From positions 898 to 64,897 of the forward strand of contig VMTD01000061.1 of NCBI GenBank assembly GCA_013791785.1: a stretch of DNA of 64,000 bases, given 5' to 3'. Below the pieces are notes generated by a model that did no database searches, was not told where the DNA came from, and was given only the letters and a program-made list of their open reading frames with translations. This DNA comes from Methanobacteriota archaeon (GTDB lineage Archaea > Thermoplasmatota > Thermoplasmata > SG8-5). The position numbers and the translations under genes were made by a program. Positions 1,565 through 58,800 of the stretch are shown piece by piece. Numbering within the stretch: position 1 is the first letter of the stretch; every line of letters begins with the position of its first letter.

Positions 1565-1592
1565 ATACGCAAATATTCGGTGAAACGATAAC

Positions 1593-1680
1593 GATTGTAG
1601 ATGTATGACGATTGTAGATTTAGGGATTGTAGATTGTAGATGTATGGCGATTGTAGATTTGGGGATTGTAGATTGTAGAT
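1593..1680. repeat. Tandem array of the 10-bp unit GATTGTAGAT (about 7 units with short spacers). It is the inverted counterpart of the array at 58317-58352.
   Basis: Direct reading. The reverse complement of 58300-58360 aligns with 1652-1700, including the shared flank tacgacggaNtgacgNcgttgcatattc. Confidence 0.8.
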
Positions 1681-1717
1681 ATACGACGGATTGACGGCGT
1701 TGCATATTCCCAGCACA

Positions 1718-1802
1718 AATCTAAAATCTAAAATCTAAAATCTAAAATACGGTTGGACATTCTGCCAGCAAAAATCTAAAATCTAAGATCTAAAATCTAA
1801 AA
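1718..1802. repeat. Two arrays of the 10-bp unit ATCTAAAATC separated by a conserved spacer (tacggttggacattctgccagca). This is the inverted copy of 57856-57940.
   Basis: The reverse complement of 1700-1800 aligns with 57841-57945 almost base for base. Confidence 0.8.
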
Positions 1803-1838
1803 TTTCGGAAGGCTGAATACTTATTACTTGGGTACAAT

Positions 1839-2551: not shown

Positions 2552-3014
2552 AATAACCATTGCCCAGGTTTTCAGGAAGAAGGGCAGAACAGCCATGGCG
2601 GAGAGGGACTTTGTCTTTGCACTGTCTCTGGACTTCGGGTGGTTCAATCCCAAGGACGCGCAAAAATTACTGGAGAAAGGACTGGAGAGCGAACTGCTGG
2701 TCATGGATGACAACAAGGTTAAGCCGACATTTGATTATAATGATATTGAGATACCCAGGGGCTTCAAGCCGAGTCCGGAAATGCTGCAGAAAAAGTCCGA
2801 ACCGAAGGGCGTTTTCATGAAGATGATCGACGAGATTTCCATAGCCATATCGATACCCGCAAAGGACGTCATATCCCAGGTCAACAGCGTCCAGGACAGA
2901 ATGAGCGTGGATATTGAAGTGGCGGCCCTCATAGTCGCCAAAAATAACGGCGTGGACCTTTCCGATTACTTCGACACGGTGGAAGAGGAAATAGGCAAGC
3001 GCTACCGCGGGTAA
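2538..3014 (+). CDS. Conserved archaeal hypothetical protein (158 aa).
   Basis: The ORF overlaps the upstream gene, and its TAA stop lies inside the palindromic element at 3011. Confidence 0.4.
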   Translation: MKELEITIAQVFRKKGRTAMAERDFVFALSLDFGWFNPKDAQKLLEKGLESELLVMDDNKVKPTFDYNDIEIPRGFKPSPEMLQKKSEPKGVFMKMIDEISIAISIPAKDVISQVNSVQDRMSVDIEVAALIVAKNNGVDLSDYFDTVEEEIGKRYRG

Positions 3015-3140
3015 ACTACCAGCCCTAAAGTGGCTGGCGTTTCTAATTGGGCTGGAAGTTTACCTGGGGGCCATGCATATGTGCACGATGCATGGCAGGC
3101 CATGCATATGAGCACGGCGGTCTACATTTTGTTTATATCC
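3011..3140. repeat. Family A palindromic element, copy 1. The core is 3011-3063 (gtaaactaccagccc...gggctggaagtttac), followed by a module with ATGCAT/CATATG-containing inverted repeats.
   Basis: The same core occurs at 10643-10698 and 58077-58131. The downstream module is shared with copy 3 (gggggccatgca ... gcacggcggtcta). Confidence 0.8.
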
Positions 3141-3201
3141 GTGTAAATGGCCAATTCATCTCAGGCGTGAACGCCAGAGGGTTCTTGACATTTATCACTA
3201 A

Positions 3202-3954
3202 TCATCCGATATATTTCAGTTCATCCGGCTTGACTGTCGGCGGCTTCATGTCATTGAGGCTCGCGGTGAGGTCGTCAATCTCCTTGGAATGCTGTTCCAG
3301 TTCTGTAAAATCTATCTTGACGCCTATCAATTTTCCAAGAATTTCGAGTATGGCCTGGGCACTCTTCGGGTCCGAGAAGTAGCCGGAAGTTTCCCCCATG
3401 AGGCATGCTGCCTCTATGTTCCTGAGTTGGCCAAGGCCCAGAAGCAGACCGGCGGCGCCGACTATGCCGCCTGCGGGCTCGTCCTTCGAGAACTCCACGC
3501 CGACGGCCTTGAGTTCCTTCACCAGTGGCAGTGTGGTTGTTGCCCCGAGGACTCTGGGTTGGTTGACCAGTTTACCGACGCTCCAGCCGCCCAGTGTGTA
3601 AATTCTCTTGCCCTTGTACCTCTCGAAAATGTCCAGTATCTCGTGGGATATATCGTATTGCCCCTCCTGGGATATGCCCTGGTAGTCACCGGAGAGAATA
3701 ATTATGTCCGACCCAGACTTGGTTTTATGATAGTAAAGGTCATTGGAAACGAGCCTTATCACGCCGTCATTACCTATAAGAACCTGCGGTGGGAAATGCT
3801 TTGAATAAATGCTGGCAAATTTCTTCGCTTTCAGTTTCATGATAAGATGCTCGGCTGCCAGTTTGCCCACGTTCCCGACGCCCGGAAGACCCTCTACAAG
3901 TATGGGGGTCCGAAGTTTCGGTTCTTCGTGATAGATAACCATTAATTCCTTCAT
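3202..3954 (-). CDS. Proteasome-assembly chaperone family protein (PAC2 / PbaA-like).
   Basis: Motif LVEGLPGVGNVGKLAAEHLI. The start is assigned to the ATG at 3954, which overlaps the Nop10 stop as ATGA. The longer ORF starting at 4107 is rejected as an N-terminal extension. Confidence 0.6.
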   Translation of the reverse strand: MKELMVIYHEEPKLRTPILVEGLPGVGNVGKLAAEHLIMKLKAKKFASIYSKHFPPQVLIGNDGVIRLVSNDLYYHKTKSGSDIIILSGDYQGISQEGQYDISHEILDIFERYKGKRIYTLGGWSVGKLVNQPRVLGATTTLPLVKELKAVGVEFSKDEPAGGIVGAAGLLLGLGQLRNIEAACLMGETSGYFSDPKSAQAILEILGKLIGVKIDFTELEQHSKEIDDLTASLNDMKPPTVKPDELKYIG

Positions 3955-5476: not shown

Positions 5477-5613
5477 TGTAAGTGGTCAGTCTTCAGAAGT
5501 TATAATCCCGCAATAACAGATTTGATTTTCTAACTGGCTGTTATAATCTGTTCCTGTATCAGCTATATCAAATTGCCATAATTTATTGGCAGAGCTATCT
5601 GTAGTTTGCCAGA
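5477..5613. repeat. Family C intergenic repeat, copy 1 (about 135 bp), beginning tgtaagtggtcagtcttcagaagttat...ccgcaataacagat and ending ...ccataatttatt.
   Basis: The second copy is at 57955-58076. The 5' 44 nt and the ccataatttatt block are conserved between the two copies, and the middle parts are about 60% similar. Confidence 0.7.
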
Positions 5614-7719: not shown

Positions 7720-8370
7720 ACATATGCCCCATTTATAGGATTGAAGGTATTTAAGGGTTTTGGCGGGGTTATTCCCCTGTTGCCCTTGAGATGAGAAATA
7801 CGCGGAAGGGTATATGTGGAAGCGGAGGGGGTGGGCGAAAGTACGGGGGCAGGGACTTGGCCGGGATGGCTGGAAGCGGCCGCTTGGGGGTTGGCCGGTG
7901 CCGGAGCCCTGGGGCCGGGTTGTGCGCCGGTTTAAGCTAACCCCGCCCTTCGCTTCGCTCAGACGGGGCTTTTAAAGAATGATGCGGTAATCGTGTCACA
8001 CGACATCGAATTTTATGGATTCGATGGCGGGTACCCCGCCCTCCAGATAAAATGAGAAGGGATTCAGACGGGGCATGATGGGGATGAGCGGTGTGGGGGG
8101 CGCTTTTTTGGTCGGCGCTATTTCAGGAAAGATGGTCCGCAACATCCCCATACCTCGACATACAAGCCAGCACGTCATTTGGCATGCAGCATGCCCCGCC
8201 TGTGAGGGCGGGGTTTTATACTATTCTGGCATCAAGTGATATTCTTCCAAACAAATGATGCATTTTGCATTCTTCAACTGTCAAACCTCGCCTGTAAGGG
8301 CGGGGTGACGACGGCACCCCATCAAGCCGACAATTGGGAGACGGCCGCGCGCCCCCAGCCAGCCACGCCA
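7720..8370. other. 650-bp GC/G-rich region without a credible ORF. It carries TATA-like direct repeats at its 5' end and GC palindromes including a hairpin plus T-run at 8194-8219, and is a candidate ncRNA locus.
   Basis: There are no long ORFs. ccatttatagga occurs twice (7709-7720 and 7739-7750). Palindromes of the form CCCGCC-N5-6-GGCGGG lie at about 8032, 8194 and 8288, and family D repeats at 7870-7952. Confidence 0.4.
8194..8219 (+). terminator. Intrinsic-terminator-like hairpin (ccccgcc tgtgag ggcgggg) followed by TTTTAT.
   Basis: A perfect 7-bp GC stem is followed by a T-run. There is no upstream protein gene on this strand for about 500 bp. Confidence 0.4.
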
Positions 8371-10065: not shown

Positions 10066-10646
10066 ACATGATTACCGAGAAAGACGTTGAAAAGCTCTTC
10101 GGAGCGTATCTGAAACAGATAAAGAACAAGAAGATGCGCGACATGACCGTGAAGGTATGGGTCGACGGATGCAAGCAGGGCGGCTGGACCACTGTCAAGC
10201 AACTGGAGAAGATGCCATACACTCTTCTGACAGAGACTTACGGCATCAATTTCATAGAGCACACCATCGCCGTAACGAGAGGCGCAATGGAACTCGCCAA
10301 GGCCCAGCTGGACACCTACAGGAAAATGCCTTACAAGATAGACATGGACCGATTGATTGTCGGCGGTCTGCTGCATGACATAGGAAAGCTGGTGGAGACA
10401 GAGCCGGACGGAAAGGGCGGGTACAGGAAGAGCCATGCAGGAAAATGCCTCCGGCATCCGGTGTCCGGAACCGTCATGGTCAAGATGGCCGGATTTTCTG
10501 ACGAGATAGCCAACACCATAGCATGCCACGCCAAGGAGGGCGAGGGCGCACCCCAGTGCATCGAGACAGTGTTCATCCATCAGGCTGATTTCGCTACGTT
10601 CAACCCGCTGGTCATGATGAACGGCGGAAAGCTGATACAGGAGTAA
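10062..10646 (+). CDS. HD-domain phosphohydrolase.
   Basis: It has an H...HD...D motif (GLLHDIGK). Its start overlaps the gap stop as ATGA, and its TAA stop lies inside the palindromic element. Confidence 0.7.
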
Positions 10647-10698
10647 ACTACCAGCCCCTAAAGTGGCTGGCGTTTGTTGCCAGGGCTGGAAGTTTACT
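10643..10698. repeat. Family A palindromic element, copy 2 (56 bp): gtaaactaccagcccctaaagtggctggcgtttgttgccagggctggaagtttac.
   Basis: The arms GTAAACTACCAGCCC and GGGCTGGAAGTTTAC are inverted repeats. The left GTAAAC contains the TAA stop of the HD gene on the plus strand. The right GTTTAC contains, on the minus strand, the TAA stop of the methyltransferase gene. Confidence 0.85.
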
Positions 10699-15136: not shown

Positions 15137-15220
15137 GGGAACTGGGGAATTGGATGGATTTAGGTTGCAAGGGAACTGGGGAATGTGGATGGATTTAGGT
15201 TGCAAGGGAATGGGGAATCG
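15137..15220. repeat. Tandem direct repeat of a 34-bp unit, about 2.4 copies (ggaactggggaat(t/g)tggatggatttaggttgcaag).
   Basis: Direct reading of the intergenic region upstream of arcC. Confidence 0.8.
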
Positions 15221-15365: not shown

Positions 15366-16307
15366 ATGAAGACAGCAATCATCGCCATAGGCGGTAACGC
15401 ACTCATCAAGAAGGGCGAGGAAGGGAATATCTACCAGCAGTTCGCGAATGCGCGGGAGACTTGCGCCAAGCTGCTTAAAGTTGTGGAAATGGGCTATGAT
15501 ATTATTATCACGCACGGCAACGGACCCCAGGTGGGCCATGCCATCAGACGGCACGAGAACGCCAGGAAGATTTTCCCGCCTTACCCGCTGGGCATGTGCG
15601 TCGCCGAGACTGTCGGAAGCATGGGATACATGCTCCAGCAGACGATGCAGAACACGGTGAAGAAATCGAAAGTCGTGAGAAAAGACACTGTCACCATAAT
15701 CACCCAGGTCGTCGTCGACGATGACGACCCCTCATTCCAGAATCCCACAAAACCCATTGGCCAGTTCTTTTCGAAAGAGGACATTGAAAAGATAGCGAAG
15801 GCCGAGAAGTGGGCCGTCATTGAAGATTCGGGCCGGGGCTGGCGCCGCGTTGTGCCGTCGCCCAAACCGTTGCGCATAGTGGAGAAGGATACCATCGGCG
15901 ATTTACTGGCCAAGGGCAAGATAGTCATTGCCTGCGGCGGGGGCGGTTTGCCTGTTATTCAGCTGGAGGACGGGACGCTTGACGGCGTCGAGGCAGTCAT
16001 CGACAAGGATTATGCCTCATCCAAGCTGGCTCAGCAACTTGATCTTGACGAATTGATAATTCTCACCAGCGTGGACAAGGTCTCCCTGAACTTCGGGAAG
16101 CCGGATTACGTCGACCTGGATATCCTCACAGTCGCAGAGGCAAAGAAACACCTGAAGGACGGGCAATTCCCGCCGGGCTCCATGGGACCGAAAATCGAAT
16201 CGGCAATAGAATTCATCGAGAGCGGCGGCAAGAAAGCCGTCATCGCCAGTCACGAGAATCTGGTGGAAGCCATGCGGGGCAAGGCTGGGACTAGGATTGT
16301 GCGGTGA
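15366..16307 (+). CDS. arcC: Carbamate kinase.
   Basis: N-terminus MKTAIIAIGGNAL, amino-acid-kinase fold motifs and a length of 313 aa. Confidence 0.9.
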   Translation: MKTAIIAIGGNALIKKGEEGNIYQQFANARETCAKLLKVVEMGYDIIITHGNGPQVGHAIRRHENARKIFPPYPLGMCVAETVGSMGYMLQQTMQNTVKKSKVVRKDTVTIITQVVVDDDDPSFQNPTKPIGQFFSKEDIEKIAKAEKWAVIEDSGRGWRRVVPSPKPLRIVEKDTIGDLLAKGKIVIACGGGGLPVIQLEDGTLDGVEAVIDKDYASSKLAQQLDLDELIILTSVDKVSLNFGKPDYVDLDILTVAEAKKHLKDGQFPPGSMGPKIESAIEFIESGGKKAVIASHENLVEAMRGKAGTRIVR

Positions 16308-16445
16308 GTGTTACTGCAAAAATGAAGAGAAAGCACAGCCATGCGGGCAAGGCTGGGACCAGGATTGTGCGGTGAGTGTTAGTGGAATAATGAAGAGATA
16401 GCCCAGCCATGCGGGCAAGGCCGGGACCAGGATTGTGCGTTGAAC
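16271..16445. repeat. Tandem repeat of about 68 bp, 2.6 copies. The first copy encodes the last 12 codons of arcC plus its stop.
   Basis: ccatgcgggcaaggctgggaccaggattgtgcggtgagtgtta...gaagag..agc.cag is repeated at 16271, 16340 and, partially, 16407. Confidence 0.8.
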
Positions 16446-30470: not shown

Positions 30471-31481
30471 ATGGCTAAGAACAAAAAACTACCAGACAAC
30501 CAGATAACGGTTTACCAAACTCCAGATGGTGAAATTAATATTGAAGTGATGTACGTCAATGAAAATCTCTGGATGCCTCAAAAAAGAATGGCGGAGCTTT
30601 TTGGTGTAGAACGAAGTGTTGTTACCAAGCACCTGAAGAATATCTTTTCGGATAATGAGTTACAGAAAGATTCAGTGTGTGCAAATTTTGCACATACTGC
30701 CGAGGATGGCAAGGAATATCTGACTAATTTTTATTCTCTTGAAGCCATCATTGCCGTAGGTTACCGGGTAAATTCGGAACGTGGCATTCAGTTTCGACAA
30801 TGGGCGATTTCAATTCTCCAGCAATATATTCACAAAGGATTTGCGATTGACAATGACCGATTTAAACACGGCTCCCGTTTCAGCACGAGATATTTCGATG
30901 ACTTGCTGGAGGAGATACGTGACATCCGCTCCAGTGAAAGGATGCTGTATCAGAAAATAACTGATATTTATGCTACATCTATTGATTATTCTCTAAAAAC
31001 TGAGGACACAAAACAGTTTTTTGCGACAGTACAGAATAAACTGCACTTTGCCATTACTGGGCAGACCGCTGCAGAAATAATATCTGCACGGGCCAAGAGC
31101 GACAAGCCAAACATGGGATTGACATCATGGCGAAAAGGGCATGGGGGTAAAATCATGCCAGGTGATGTTATCATAGCAAAAAACTATCTGGATAAACAGG
31201 AGCTTGATCATTTAAACCGCATTGTAACCTTGTATCTTGATTATGCGGAGCTGCAAGCGGTTCGTAATAAACCCATGTACATGAAAGATTGGACTGAAAA
31301 ACTGAACGCTTTTCTGAAGTTCAGCGAATATGAAATACTTACCAATGCAGGGACAATCAGCCATGAAGTTGCTCTTGCCCTGGCTAACAAAGAATATGAA
31401 ACATTCAAGAAAATTCAGGATACAAATTATCTCTCGGATTTTGATAAAGAGGTTAAAAGGGTTAGAGAGTGTAAGAAATGA
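30471..31481 (+). CDS. RhuM-family protein (Virulence_RhuM domain), a common marker of mobile and defence islands.
   Basis: N-terminal region ITVYQTPDGEINIEV...NLWMPQKRMAELFGVERSVVTKHLKNIF matches the RhuM/Fic-associated DNA-binding family. The coding region is AT-rich. Confidence 0.65.
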   Translation: MAKNKKLPDNQITVYQTPDGEINIEVMYVNENLWMPQKRMAELFGVERSVVTKHLKNIFSDNELQKDSVCANFAHTAEDGKEYLTNFYSLEAIIAVGYRVNSERGIQFRQWAISILQQYIHKGFAIDNDRFKHGSRFSTRYFDDLLEEIRDIRSSERMLYQKITDIYATSIDYSLKTEDTKQFFATVQNKLHFAITGQTAAEIISARAKSDKPNMGLTSWRKGHGGKIMPGDVIIAKNYLDKQELDHLNRIVTLYLDYAELQAVRNKPMYMKDWTEKLNAFLKFSEYEILTNAGTISHEVALALANKEYETFKKIQDTNYLSDFDKEVKRVRECKK

Positions 31482-53961: not shown

Positions 53962-54385
53962 TGCGCTACCTTAAGCGGCTTCGGGTAAAAAACGTTTTGT
54001 AGCCGCAATCAAATCGTTTGCAGAATGTCGATTGCGGAAATTCCTCACACCCGTAATCAAAAACGTATCTAAAATGTCGATTACGGAAATTTTATGATGG
54101 TGCATGATGATTAAATGGCCCATCATGGCGAACGCTCTTTTTTGTTTTCATTTAGATTTCGCATTCACCATTTGTTTGTAAAACGATTATAATTTTATGG
54201 CCCCTGGATTTAGTTTGAAAACGTTTCCGGGCCATAGGCGAATGCGATGTTTGGATATGTTCGGAACTGCATTCACCACACGTCGTAAATCGAAAATCTA
54301 CAATCTAAAATTGACAATCGCCAATGTTGCCGCTTCCGGTAAAAAACATTTTGTAGTGCGGCAACATGGACGTGTTGGTGAACCC
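53962..54385. repeat. Repeat-rich divergent intergenic region.
   Basis: Paired direct repeats: gcttc.ggtaaaaaac.ttttgtag.gc at 53976 and 54325; cgatt.cggaaatt at 54039 and 54081; gcattcacca at 54155 and 54258. A partial family B array (cgtcgtaaatcgaaaatctacaatctaaaattgacaatcg) lies at 54278-54317. Confidence 0.6.
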
Positions 54386-55196: not shown

Positions 55197-55976
55197 ATGG
55201 AGAGTGCGTTTAGGAAGAAGGCCTTGGCGGTCTGGGTAATCCTCATTATTGTGTTCGGGGGATATTGCACTTACCTGGCCAACATAGAACCTGAGAGAGA
55301 AACGGTTATCTTCATTACGATGACAAGGTATGACATTCAATCGATGAATATTTCGGATGCCTGCGATGCCTTCAATCAAACCTCTTTTCTGGACAATTAT
55401 TCGGTCGGAAATTTTACTGGAACAGATTCCCGTAGATTAAAAATAATTCCTGTTGATAATGAATATATTGAAATTCAATTCTGCAGGCAAGAAGAGATTG
55501 ACCAAACATATTTTTTGGCGATTGGATATGCAGATTTACGTCCATTAATCGGGAATGAGAATTACAATGAATTGGGGACGACATTACAAACAGAATTGGC
55601 TCATGTCCTTGAATATGTAGGCATACAGGTAAGTCCCGAGGAACTGAACGTAATAAGTTACAATCGAGTTACTCCGGATTTTATTTCGCTCACTGCTTTT
55701 TTTGGGCTATTGGCATCGGTTGTGACATATTCATTTTTATTATTTTTCAAGAAGGGGCTCATCCTGCGAAATCTTGGGGGGAGTTTCGTAGATCATCCGA
55801 GACTGCTCATAGGGTTGGCTGGAATGTTCCTTTCCGCATTCCTGGGCCTATGGGAACTCTGGTGGATGGTAGGCGTTGAAACTTTTTCCAGTATTGGCTA
55901 TTTGGCATTATATATTCTACCATTCATCGGAGGACTATACCTGATTAATCGGGAGATTCCGAAGCTAACTCAGTAG
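55197..55976 (+). CDS. Hypothetical membrane protein (AT-rich).
   Basis: N-terminal and C-terminal TM helices and no recognisable domain. Confidence 0.35.
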   Translation: MESAFRKKALAVWVILIIVFGGYCTYLANIEPERETVIFITMTRYDIQSMNISDACDAFNQTSFLDNYSVGNFTGTDSRRLKIIPVDNEYIEIQFCRQEEIDQTYFLAIGYADLRPLIGNENYNELGTTLQTELAHVLEYVGIQVSPEELNVISYNRVTPDFISLTAFFGLLASVVTYSFLLFFKKGLILRNLGGSFVDHPRLLIGLAGMFLSAFLGLWELWWMVGVETFSSIGYLALYILPFIGGLYLINREIPKLTQ

Positions 55977-57775
55977 CCCAGCTTCTTCGCCTCTTCCTCG
56001 GCCTGGGTGACCATTCCGTCCAGCAGGTCCAGACCGTTCTGCCAGAATTCCGGTTTTGTTATGTCCAGGCCCATCTTGGCCATGAGGTTCTTCGGATAAT
56101 CGGAGCCGCCGGCGGCCAGCATGTCCATGTACTTCGGAACGAACGGCTGGCCCTGCTTGCGGTACTGCTCGTAGAGCGACAGAACCATCAGTTCCCCGAA
56201 TGAGTATGCGTAGGTGTAGAACGGGTAATGAACGAAATGAAGGACGTACGACCACCAGGAGCCGTATTCCTCGGTCATCTCAACCGAATCGCCGAACATC
56301 CAGCGGTTCTCGTCGAGCCACATCTGATGTATCTCTTCCGATTTCAGTTCGCCCTGCCCGCGCCTTGCGGCATGGAGCTTTGTTTCGAACCGGTTCATCA
56401 TTATCTGGCGCATGACGGTTGCGAACGTTCCTTCAATTTTGCCGCAAAGGAGATTGAGCCGCTTCTTCGGGTCCTGCTCCTTGGCCAGAAGGTCCGTGAA
56501 CAGCACCATCTCGCCGAATATGCTTGCGGTTTCGGCCATGCACAGAGAGGTGTCCATGAGAAGGTCGCCGCGTTCTCTGGCAAGGTACTGGTGTATGCCG
56601 TGACCCATCTCATGGGCCATTGTCGAGGCGTCGCTCAGGGTGTCGGTGAAGTTCAGCATGATGTAAGGATGATGGTCGGAAGCGGTACTCGCGGAGAAGG
56701 CGCCGCCCTCCTTGCCCTGCCTGGGGTCTGCGTCTATCCAGCCGTGGTCGAAGAATTGCTTGGCTATCTCGCCCGCTTTCGGGCTGAACGACGAGTATGC
56801 AGCCAGGGTCATGGCCTTTGCGGCCTCGTAATCGCACGGCTCTTCTTCCTGGGTGATGGGGCAGTATCTGTCGTAATCCTTGAGATTGTCCATGCCCAGC
56901 AGTTTGGCCTTCAGCCTGTAATACCTGGCCACCATGCCCACATTCCTGTCCACCGCGGCCTTGAGGCTCTCCACTGTCTCGTCGTCGACCTCGTTGGCCA
57001 GGTTTCGCTTCCTGGCAGGGTGCGGAAATTTCCTGAACTCATCTTCTGTGGCATGATGCTGCACCAGGGTGTTGAATATGAACGTGAGAAGGTCCATGTT
57101 TGCGGCCAGGGCCTCGGTGACGCCTTTGTGGGCCATCTTCCTCTTATCCCTGTCCGGGTGGAACAGCATTGCCAGGGCGCCGTCCATTGGCAGGGTCTGC
57201 TCCTGTCCGTCCACCGTGACCTTTACCTGAATCTTGCCCATTGTCTCGTCGAAGAGCCTGACGAACGCCTGTCTGCCGGATAATTCAAGCGCGCTCATGA
57301 GCTTCTCCTCGGCCTCTGAAAGCTGGTGGGGCTTCATCAGCCTCTTCGCTTCCAGCAGATGCCTGTAATCCGCGAGCTCCGGGGATGCCATCAGGCTGTT
57401 GGCAACGTCGTCCTCAATGGCACACCACGCAAGCTCCACGAATATGAGCTGGCTCTCGGCCTTGACGTATAATTCCATCAGGGCCTGTTTCAGCGCAGCC
57501 GCATCTTTGGAAGTGGTGTTCTGGGAGAATCTCAGGTGCGCATAATAATACGGTTTGCGGACATCCCTGGTAATTGCCTCCAGTTCCCTGACAATATCGT
57601 ACATCTGCCCGGGAGTCACTGATGAATTCAGCACCGGCCTGTACTTGGCCTCGAAAGCTTCCGCGCGTTTGACGGCCGCTGCCATCTGTTCCTTGATTTG
57701 GGCACCGTCCAGAGACGGGCATATACCCTCAAAATTCCATTCAATTCCCTTGGCACTTGAATCCTTTGCAACCAT
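55970..57775 (-). CDS. pepF: Oligoendopeptidase F (M3B metallopeptidase).
   Basis: HEMGHGIH zinc-binding motif and a length of 601 aa. Confidence 0.9.
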   Translation of the reverse strand: MVAKDSSAKGIEWNFEGICPSLDGAQIKEQMAAAVKRAEAFEAKYRPVLNSSVTPGQMYDIVRELEAITRDVRKPYYYAHLRFSQNTTSKDAAALKQALMELYVKAESQLIFVELAWCAIEDDVANSLMASPELADYRHLLEAKRLMKPHQLSEAEEKLMSALELSGRQAFVRLFDETMGKIQVKVTVDGQEQTLPMDGALAMLFHPDRDKRKMAHKGVTEALAANMDLLTFIFNTLVQHHATEDEFRKFPHPARKRNLANEVDDETVESLKAAVDRNVGMVARYYRLKAKLLGMDNLKDYDRYCPITQEEEPCDYEAAKAMTLAAYSSFSPKAGEIAKQFFDHGWIDADPRQGKEGGAFSASTASDHHPYIMLNFTDTLSDASTMAHEMGHGIHQYLARERGDLLMDTSLCMAETASIFGEMVLFTDLLAKEQDPKKRLNLLCGKIEGTFATVMRQIMMNRFETKLHAARRGQGELKSEEIHQMWLDENRWMFGDSVEMTEEYGSWWSYVLHFVHYPFYTYAYSFGELMVLSLYEQYRKQGQPFVPKYMDMLAAGGSDYPKNLMAKMGLDITKPEFWQNGLDLLDGMVTQAEEEAKKLGY

Positions 57776-57855
57776 ATTTGTTCACCGAGGACGGGGATAA
57801 GGTGATAGGTTAATAATTTTAGCCACCCTTGTGGAAGGAAAATGCCCAACCATAT

Positions 57856-57940
57856 TTTAGATTTTAGATCTTAGATTTTAGATTTGTGCTGGCAGAATGC
57901 CCAACCGTATTTTAGATTTTAGAACTTAGATTTTAGATTT
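57856..57940. repeat. Family B arrays of the unit GATTTTAGAT, in two blocks separated by tgctggcagaatgcccaaccgt. This is the inverted counterpart of 1718-1802.
   Basis: See 1718-1802. Confidence 0.8.
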
Positions 57941-57954
57941 TTGTTGAGAATATG

Positions 57955-58288
57955 TGTAAGTGGTCAATCTTCAAAAGTTATTATTCCGCAATAACAGATG
58001 TAATTATATGACTGACTATTGTAATCAATTCCCGTTTCAGTTAAATCAAAAAACCATAATTTATTGTTAGAACTATGTAAACTACCAGCCCCTAAAGGAG
58101 TTGGCGTTTGTTGCCAGGGCTGGAAGTTTACCCAGGGGGCCATGCACCTAATTTATCAAAGCCAAATGGCTTTGATTTCATATGCTGGCATATGCACGGT
58201 GCACGGCGGTCTATTTTTTGTTCAGAGGGGTACTTGGGGATGCGGACCACTTACCGTTGTAAGAGGCTTCACATCAGTGACCTCTTAC
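57955..58288. mobile_element. MITE-like composite insertion of about 334 bp. It consists of family C copy 2 (57955-58076), the family A palindromic core (58077-58131), the family A downstream module and a terminal hairpin. It is flanked by a GAATATG direct repeat and has imperfect terminal inverted repeats GTAAG(T/A)GGTCA.
   Basis: GAATATG occurs at 57948-57954 and again at 58289-58295. The paralogous locus at about 1697-1712 has a single catattc (reverse-complemented) and no insert. The 5' end is tgtaagtggtca. The reverse complement of the 3' end is gtaagaggtcac. Confidence 0.4.
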
Positions 58289-58316
58289 GAATATGCAACG
58301 TCGTCAGTCCGTCGTA

Positions 58317-58352
58317 AATCTACAATCTACAATCCCTAAATCTACAATCGTC
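58317..58352. repeat. Family B array of the unit ATCTACAATC (3.5 units) abutting the stop codon of the 58351 gene.
   Basis: The reverse complement matches 1640-1680. Confidence 0.8.
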
Positions 58353-58800
58353 AATCCGCCAGCCATTCTTTAATTGCGGCCACGGCGGCCTCCCGCCTGG
58401 CTGGGTACACGCCCACCTTGAGCCGCACGTCGATGACATCCCTGCCAGACGCCAGGGCCAGTTCTTCGAGATATGCTTTCTGCTTGTCCAGCCTGAAATG
58501 GAACGCGCATTCCTCGTCCACGCGCTCTTCCTCCTGGCCAATTAGATTTTCGGGAATGTGTGCTTCTGCCAGCCGTCCGAGAAAATTCTTTATCTGGCCG
58601 GCCTTCAGGAGTTCTGTTTCGAAAACCGTAATCGGATTGCCGAAGTGGCCTGTTGTCGCGGTCACATTCACCTCTTCGGTACCGGATGCGAATTTCATGG
58701 CTGCCAGGACCCTTTCCTCGATTTCCGTGGCCTGGGCGAAGGCGCGGAAGCGGATGCTGAGAAACTTGATTTCGCTCATTGCTGTATGTAATATTGCCAT
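58351..58800 (-). CDS. Conserved archaeal small protein (UPF0201/COG1931-like putative RNA-binding protein).
   Basis: 149 aa. The identification is by general resemblance only. The alternative-frame ORF 58370..58819 is rejected. Confidence 0.4.
   Translation of the reverse strand: MAILHTAMSEIKFLSIRFRAFAQATEIEERVLAAMKFASGTEEVNVTATTGHFGNPITVFETELLKAGQIKNFLGRLAEAHIPENLIGQEEERVDEECAFHFRLDKQKAYLEELALASGRDVIDVRLKVGVYPARREAAVAAIKEWLAD

Follow-up and report, generated by a model that had tools for sequence, protein, structure and literature searches.

At positions 57828–58356, the 64,000-nt stretch of DNA analyzed here (the window) very probably carries a three-layer nest of non-autonomous mobile elements, termed R, C and A, whose mobilization we infer from their ends and target sites. 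C is a 197-bp miniature inverted-repeat transposable element (MITE) inserted in R, which is itself a MITE family with ends related to those of C, and A is a truncated copy of an unrelated mobile element of ~230 bp without inverted ends that lies within C (Table 1). An earlier note, made from the sequence of this region, had proposed a non-autonomous, MITE-like transposon that lies within a repeat locus, ends in terminal inverted repeats, is flanked by a target-site duplication and has no transposase nearby. This core proposal is supported by the present analysis; its description of one composite element was right as to mobility, but the insertion resolves into three nested elements, and the canonical unit is 197 bp long and lacks family A. 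Likewise, C is indeed nested in a repeat locus, but that locus, described as tandem repeats, is the MITE family R, which has its own 8-bp target duplications.

Thermoplasmatota are known almost exclusively from metagenome-assembled genomes (MAGs), and a full-text literature search turned up no paper that treats MITEs together with Thermoplasmata. The three families are undescribed for Thermoplasmatota archaea, whereas nested conglomerates of MITEs and PATEs are well described in haloarchaea (PMC3119063). The nesting is ordinary selfish DNA, and nothing in it alters the known working of MITEs; its value lies in adding three delimited repeat families to the annotation of Thermoplasmatota. The most interesting part is family A: its structure is conserved across six or more other MAG species, it is linked to stop codons, and it is absent from Rfam.

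Table 1. Coordinates of the nested elements, their target copies and related copies in the window.
Feature	Position	Strand	Description
R left arm	57828..57947	+	Two ~55-bp units with ATTTTAG heptad arrays; outer R inverted repeat missing
Target, left copy (GAATATG)	57948..57954	+	8-mer GAATATGT; from self-BLAST
MITE C, left part	57955..58076	+	Terminal inverted repeat GTAAGTGGTCA at 57956–57966; AT-rich, unstructured (z = +0.9)
Element A, truncated	58077..58222	+	55-bp palindromic core 58077–58131; domain-2 helix with inner hairpin 58132–58209; T-run; domain 3 missing
MITE C, right part	58223..58288	+	Inner end-motif copy 58245–58254 (reverse), CGTT spacer, 29-bp hairpin 58260–58288
Target, right copy (GAATATG)	58289..58295	+	From self-BLAST
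R right arm	58296..58356	+	AATCTAC heptad array, truncated before the inverted repeat; holds the stop codon of the RNA_binding gene
Paralogous R copy without C ("empty site")	1569..1827	-	Degenerate ends GCAAATATTCGGTGAAACG and GTAATAAGTATTCAG
MITE C copy, 3′-truncated	5477..5606	+	Left end present, right end absent; stops after CTATCTGTAGT
Element A, near-full	3011..3201	+	Exactly fills the gap between convergent stop codons TAA 3012–3014 and TCA 3202–3204
Element A, core only (55-bp palindrome)	10643..10697	+	The two arms supply the TAA stops of both convergent genes

The Insertion at the 58-kb Locus and the MITE C

A self-BLAST of the window aligned 57854–57954 with 1803–1703 (93%) and 58289–58350 with 1709–1648 (93.5%), and the two matches overlap in the inverted paralogue by exactly seven bases, GAATATG (1703–1709). 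This overlap indicates that 334 bp (57955–58288) are extra at the 58-kb locus and lie between two copies of GAATATG, confirming the 7-bp target duplication that had been claimed. The paralogue contains a single GAATATG, which reads GAATATGC as an 8-mer. At the R site, C is flanked by the 8-mer GAATATGT (or GAATATCT) on one side and by GAATATGC on the other, so that the duplication measures either 7 bp or, if one mismatch is allowed, 8 bp. The claimed terminal inverted repeats were also found, since tGTAAGTGGTCA (57955–57966) and TGACCTCTTAC (58278–58288) form an inverted repeat of 10/11, and the ends of C, written as GTAAGTGGTCA and GTAAGAGGTCA, match in inverted orientation at 10 of 11 positions, as in a MITE.

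The motif GTAAGWGGTC occurs four times in the window (5478, 57956 and, in reverse, 58245 and 58279) against 0.08 expected, a count reached in none of 100 shuffles; both ends that the earlier note had proposed are among these sites, but a third, internal copy of the end motif (58245–58254) had been overlooked. The perfect 8-bp terminal hairpin noticed earlier is real (−16.6 kcal/mol, z = −5.7) but longer than described, with 12 bp and a 2-nt bulge, and it occupies the last 29 nt of the insertion (58260–58288), its outer arm being the right terminal inverted repeat of C (58278–58288). This hairpin is a fixed part of canonical C and not a separate module: the right part of C (58223–58288) is conserved at 90–95% in all copies, and the canonical right end reads GGACCACTTAC-CGTT-GTAAGAGGctTCAC-ATCA-GTGACCTCTTAC, in which an inner end copy abuts a 29-bp pair of inverted ends. 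Matches of smaller modules at 5477, 10643 and 3011 were all reproduced by self-BLAST, with 57955–58076 resembling 5477–5598 (80%), 58077–58131 resembling both 10643–10697 (94.5%) and 3011–3077 (83%), and 58201–58222 resembling 3112–3133; A, however, is a separate nested mobile element and not a building block of the insertion.

Contigs from JGI metagenomes were scanned with the pattern of the C left end, which yielded 19 loci. Eight of these are true copies with the same two ends, of the kind that the earlier note had proposed to search for, and all eight come from assembly Ga0180732; the other 11, from outside that assembly, were rejected as chance matches, as only the 18–28 nt of the pattern matched and no inverted partner was present within 6 kb. 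The same pattern had no match in representative genome contigs, a set that does not include the source species. The left end of C is common to the eight metagenome copies and to that at 5477 in the window. In seven of the metagenome copies, the sequence corresponding to 57955–58076 is joined directly to that corresponding to 58223–58288 through ~10 bp (CTGAGATAAC or CTGTAGTAATAG), and these seven copies without A are exactly 197 bp long, whereas the copy at 58 kb in the window and that on the metagenome contig L019 consist of 187 bp plus A. Family A (58077–58222) is thus missing from seven of nine C copies. In the two copies that carry it, A replaces the same 10 bp, indicating that it entered C once; its junctions inside C are not clean, and the same imprecise junction is found in both.

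One copy of C (L013 8564–8760) lies outside any R or heptad-repeat locus. It begins with GTAAG and ends with CTTAC, and the sequences that flank it, TGTGCTCT and TGTGCTGT, are identical at seven of eight positions (chance ~4e-4). The earlier note had named the lack of any other copy with the same ends or a flanking duplication as the outcome that would count against a transposon, and this copy, outside R, has its own duplication; a deletion at the 1.6-kb locus is consequently not needed for explaining the difference between the two loci in the window. At the R site, the duplication is imperfect as an 8-mer in every R-borne copy of C (7/8 or 6/8). Both C and R are non-coding, containing only ORFs of 36–91 aa, none of which is common to the copies, and at least nine copies of C and at least 12 of R were found with differing flanks, as in small multi-copy MITEs.

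The MITE R

The left end of R reads GTAAGAGTTCAGTCTTCTGAAAT and is followed by ATTTTAG heptads, and the right end, which follows AATCTAC heptads, is ...TTATCGTTTCACTGAA(C/T)ACTTAC. The terminal inverted repeats are accordingly GTAAGAGTTCAG and GTAAGT(G/A)TTCAG, or, in short form along one strand, GTAAGAGTTCAG... and ...CTGAA(C/T)ACTTAC, and the size of the element ranges from 260 to 550 bp. R and C have an end class in common, GTAAG(A/T)G(G/T)TCA. The left arm at 58 kb aligns to 1703–1803 and to R copies on contigs L011–L025. Perfect 8-bp target duplications were identified around three copies, namely CCTTCAAC at L013 4100–4500, AATACTCC around a 552-bp variant at L021 8593–9144 and GGAGGATG at L021 14321–14584; two further copies show duplications of 6/8, and several (L024, L025 and the 1.6-kb copy in the window) have no recognizable duplication.

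All seven R-borne copies of C in Ga0180732 occupy one identical position in R, and a variant in the R flank (TAAGAATATC vs TGAGAATATG) tracks the subtype of C, which argues for one insertion of C followed by the spread of R::C as a unit. Among 12 copies, the orientation of R towards neighboring genes showed no consistent bias; both R copies in the window lie directly upstream of a promoter. In L049, the spacer orthologous to the 1.6-kb locus contains no R. The variant at L021 8593–9144 (also at L021 ~8100–8290 and L050 ~190–300) combines GTGAATA heptads with hairpin-rich modules, GATGCCGCGACCTTGAGGTCTGCGGAT and GGGCTCCCC...GGGGAGCCC; pieces similar to these modules adjoin A cores elsewhere and have no match in Rfam.

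The Block between the RNA_binding Gene and pepF

The nested block sits in a 575-bp spacer between two minus-strand genes, a PF01877 RNA_binding gene (58351–58779) and pepF, which encodes an M3 oligoendopeptidase (55970–57775). Four relatives keep the synteny PFOR–RNA_binding–pepF, with pepF identities of 88, 82, 77 and 76%, and a look for empty sites, as suggested in the earlier note, found their RNA_binding–pepF spacers to be 56, 42, 61 and 58 bp long and free of repeats, indicating that the block (~57828–58356) is an insertion in this lineage. A promoter-like box, GGCTAAAATTATTAACCTATCACC (57803–57827), which is conserved with L075, lies next to pepF, on the pepF side of the block. No match to the block was found in plasmid or phage collections.

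The block, which has neither R inverted repeat and no outer duplication, may have arrived by transposition and then lost both ends, or it may have been brought in by recombination. A complete R::C::A arrangement with both R ends was identified at L019 4879–5363; over 445 bp it aligns with the window at 93.7% identity, and it lies at a non-orthologous site, its neighbors of 474 and 379 aa being unrelated genes. Since the R::C::A block occurs elsewhere and the whole block is absent from the orthologous sites, the insertion of C into R probably did not happen at the 58-kb locus.

Mobile DNA reshapes gene ends here: the stop codon of the RNA_binding gene (58351–58353, minus strand) is R-derived sequence (...GAT TGA, from GATTGACGATTG), and copies of A elsewhere sit exactly on stop codons. 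A possible older end of the RNA_binding gene with its stop, GGTGGCTAA, was noticed ~520 bp away beside the pepF promoter box (57819–57827, reverse), and the block may have cut off a few C-terminal codons of this gene.

Two other MAGs of the same population have the same sequence from pepF into C or the A core, where their contigs end. The independent assemblies L003, L004 and L005–L008 stop 362, 266 or 106 bp upstream of pepF, points that lie within the A core, C and the ATTTTAG heptads, respectively (the Logan contigs end in the heptads). Such breaks are what multi-copy repeats would produce, which argues against a chimeric join, and the repeats explain why the assemblies of this population break at these points and its MAGs are fragmented.

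The order of events that we infer begins with an R MITE with the ends given above, sub-terminal heptads and 8-bp target duplications. C, with the ends (T)GTAAGTGGTCA and TGACCTCTTAC, would have inserted once at GAATATG(C) of an R copy, duplicating its target, and A would then have entered C, replacing 10 bp and losing its 3′ third. R::C and R::C::A would subsequently have been copied as units, and in this lineage one of the copies would have settled in the spacer that separates the RNA_binding gene from the pepF promoter, both R ends being lost later at that site, where R sequence now supplies the stop codon.

Anatomy and Target Site of Element A

In the related loci examined, BLAST identified 65 copies of A with a sharp GTAAAC start, and the pattern of the 55-bp palindrome identified 46 loci in six other Thermoplasmata/Methanomassiliicoccales MAG species. 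The full element of ~230 bp starts with GTAAAC and ends with CA(C/G)TAA, and its left (GTAAACTACC...) and right (...TTATCACTAA) ends are not inverted copies of one another. It comprises a sequence-invariant core hairpin at the left; domain 2, a 10-bp long-range helix around a 7-bp hairpin; and domain 3, a two-tier hairpin that ends ~11 nt from the right end. Copies of A may also be truncated, arranged in tandem or located within another A copy or a MITE; three lie in the loop of another core, and the core variants found there have GTAA in the loop (L029, L043). Many copies carry a T-run after domain 2, and none of those examined has domains 2–3 split from the core by a gene.

In an alignment of 37 copies, 94.9% of cells are paired, and a compensatory change on both sides was observed in 22 of 42 pairs; none of 500 shuffles reached this level, and slid controls gave 26–40%. 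The bottom strand folds better than the top strand (alifold −57.6 vs −42.6 kcal/mol; z −6.6 vs −3.8), and both folding and G–U counts favor the strand opposite to that suggested by the logic of insertion. Across the window and eight loci, no match to Rfam was obtained at the gathering score except for two tRNAs elsewhere, and at E values up to 10 only chance-level matches appeared.

A sits at GTAA/TAA sites, which are often stop codons. The left TAA is preceded by an invariant G (36/37 copies), the orientation of A relative to G-TAA is fixed in the same proportion (36/37), and the base before the right TAA, in (C/G)TAA, is subfamily-specific. In 13 of 56 copies, an open frame of 60 codons or more terminates at the left TAA, as against 8% of random TAA triplets (p = 4e-4). 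Filled and empty orthologous sites can be compared in one usable pair, the window and the syntenic contig L049: the empty site in L049 reads ...AAACAA TAA CTATCCGATATATC, with a single TAA, and the filled site in the window reads ...CGCGGG TAA (ACTACC...ATCAC TAA) TCATCCGATATATT, with TAA on both sides of A (the element in parentheses). At the L049 site, which is orthologous to window position 3011, two stop codons abut (TAA CTA). The simplest model would be an orientation-specific insertion 3′ of GTAA of an element ending in (C/G)TAA, which is the IS200/IS605 pattern; the alternative, which fits these sites as well, would be a 3-bp duplication of TAA by a DDE enzyme with a preference for GTAA.

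Paralogues of a KaiC/RecA-like ATPase recur near copies of A (L059 3242–3958, L063 3368–4057, L033, L062 and L064), and in two cases the KaiC-like gene lies immediately downstream of A in the same orientation. This proximity may be a coincidence, or the right end of A (TTTAT box) may act as a promoter.

Candidate Mobilizing Enzymes and Related Elements

In line with the claim that the window contains no transposase gene, no Pfam transposase domain was found in its 20 largest unassigned ORFs, a set above the size of a TnpA of ~130–150 aa, nor in the precomputed annotations of genes on the source contig around pepF. In ~0.5 Mb of related loci, where recurrent ORFs were used as a proxy, no transposase or autonomous partner was identified and only the KaiC-like ATPase paralogues recur; no tnpA or tnpB gene lies next to any of the A copies in these loci. 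In viral contigs, the C, A and R patterns gave nothing or chance-level matches, and no transposase was found there.

IS66-family ends, as summarized in ISfinder, generally begin with GTAA and are accompanied by 8-bp repeats. All R and C ends begin with GTAAG, and the duplications are of 8 bp (perfect around three R copies, 7/8 around C). GTAA-starting ends and 8-bp duplications provide a lead, drawn from end sequence and duplication length only, that R and C might be moved in trans by an IS66/ISBst12-type transposase; the enzyme would be a DDE transposase, most likely of the IS66/ISBst12 group, that recognizes GTAAG..TCA ends and cuts its target with an 8-bp stagger. ISDge4, of the ISBst12 group, has ends GTAACTGCTCAGCA and an 8-bp repeat (PMC12898284), and ISPsk01 has ends GTAAGCGTCC..., also given as GTAAGCGTCCGGCG... 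(PMC12888890). Between the right end of R, GTAAGTGTTCAGCG, and the ISDge4 end, GTAACTGCTCAGCA, 11 of 14 positions agree. In contrast to these insertion sequences, R and C are non-coding elements of 197–550 bp from a Thermoplasmatota archaeon, R has sub-terminal heptad arrays, C has a doubled right end, and no IS66-type transposase with R or C ends was found.

A would have been moved by a different system. The likeliest is a single-strand (HUH) transposase of the IS200/IS605 type, which would place the element 3′ of GTAA and always in one orientation; A would then be a PATE. PATEs are gene-less, non-autonomous derivatives of IS200/IS605 (PMC3119063, PMC10055086), and among known elements A most resembles these. 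Points of likeness are the lack of terminal inverted repeats, the palindromes at or near both ends, the fixed orientation relative to the target, the short motif at the 5′ flank (GTAA) and 3′ terminus ((C/G)TAA), the many gene-less copies, and internal structured domains resembling those of guide-RNA-bearing ends. A differs in that its ends were not seen around any tnpA or tnpB gene, that TAA is present on both sides, and that its left palindrome is strictly terminal and does not begin 10–20 nt in. In Haloquadratum walsbyi, which contains MITEs, PATEs and SMRs, transposase-free elements outnumber transposons and are preferentially nested, with MITEs inside PATEs and 52-bp "terminal-only" palindromic remnants (PMC3119063). 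These remnants parallel the 55-bp core-only copies of A, whereas the archaeal class and the sequences differ, and here a PATE-like element lies inside a MITE inside another MITE.

REP/BIME, ERIC and Correia elements are short, hairpin-forming, multi-copy intergenic repeats that often follow stop codons and lie between convergent genes. We take the nested repeats to resemble these elements, without any relation in sequence.

A further reading of A can be put forward only tentatively, being possible but more doubtful than probable. A would be an undescribed gene-less family of IS200/IS605 type, widespread in Thermoplasmatota and homing to GTAA, typically of a TAA stop, and its multi-helix RNA would be comparable to TnpB/IscB guide-RNA scaffolds and serve a nuclease encoded elsewhere in the genome. 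If this were true, the three-layer nest would record competition between two transposition systems.

Alternative Explanations

The two loci in the window could instead have arisen by segmental duplication, the 1.6-kb copy having lost 334 bp by deletion between GAATATG microhomologies with nothing mobile involved. The junction at 1703–1709 is just what would remain if the DNA between two 7-bp direct repeats had been deleted, and archaea are known to lose mobile elements by deletion between repeats (PMC3119063), but the 197-bp unit with the same two ends and its own duplication outside any R locus (L013 8564–8760), the truncated copy at 5477, and the C-less R copies at unrelated sites with their own 8-bp duplications make this history extremely unlikely. 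C, A and the hairpin might also form a single composite transposon family moving as a 334-bp unit, as the second arrangement of this length in L019 (93.7% identity) could suggest. Seven of nine copies, however, lack A and measure 197 bp, A occurs ~65 times alone with unrelated ends and a different target, and the identical imprecise junction in both A-bearing copies points to a single nesting event; we therefore regard a composite family as very unlikely.

Functions for the host, with A as a small structured RNA gene or a 3′-end/terminator module and the R heptads as regulator-binding sites upstream of promoters, would account for the helices of A that are kept by compensatory change across species, for the T-run after domain 2 in many copies, for the excess of left TAA triplets that end open frames and for the position of both window R copies just upstream of a promoter. 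Yet A is found truncated, in tandem, self-nested and inside a MITE and belongs to no Rfam family, R is inconsistently oriented in 12 copies, the orthologous sites in four relatives do without the block, and conservation of structure is equally expected of a substrate of a single-strand transposase, and such functions appear improbable. That the nest is an artifact of metagenome assembly, joining repeat copies from different places, is scarcely credible: other assemblies of the population do break inside the repeats, but two further MAGs have identical sequence from pepF through the R left arm and C, which in one case continues into the A core, and the unrelated assembly L019 has the same internal order R–C–A–C–R. 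The reading as a nest of three mobile elements is accordingly preferred.

Other Repeats and Genes in the Window

Another repeat family occupies the 420-bp spacer between a PPDK_N-like gene and an ECH gene (53962–54380). Within it, 54003–54247 is similar to L014 6513–6709 and to sequences in L033, L042 and L045, a piece resembling the R right arm lies at 54281–54325, and the direct repeat CTTC(G/C)GGTAAAAAAC(G/A)TTTTGTAG is present at both sides. A 75% match between the window and L014 was considered as a measure of coding divergence and rejected, as it is another intergenic repeat, and the idea that the elements exceed the genome background in conservation was dropped for this reason. An ORF with a strong match to Virulence_RhuM (30471–31481; E = 2e-105) lies amid small unassigned ORFs, and this stretch (~30.4–35.7 kb) may be an accessory island. 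Tandem arrays unrelated to R, C and A were found at 15137–15218 (35 bp x 2.4 copies) and 16268–16443 (68 bp x 2.6 copies), with 91–95% matches.
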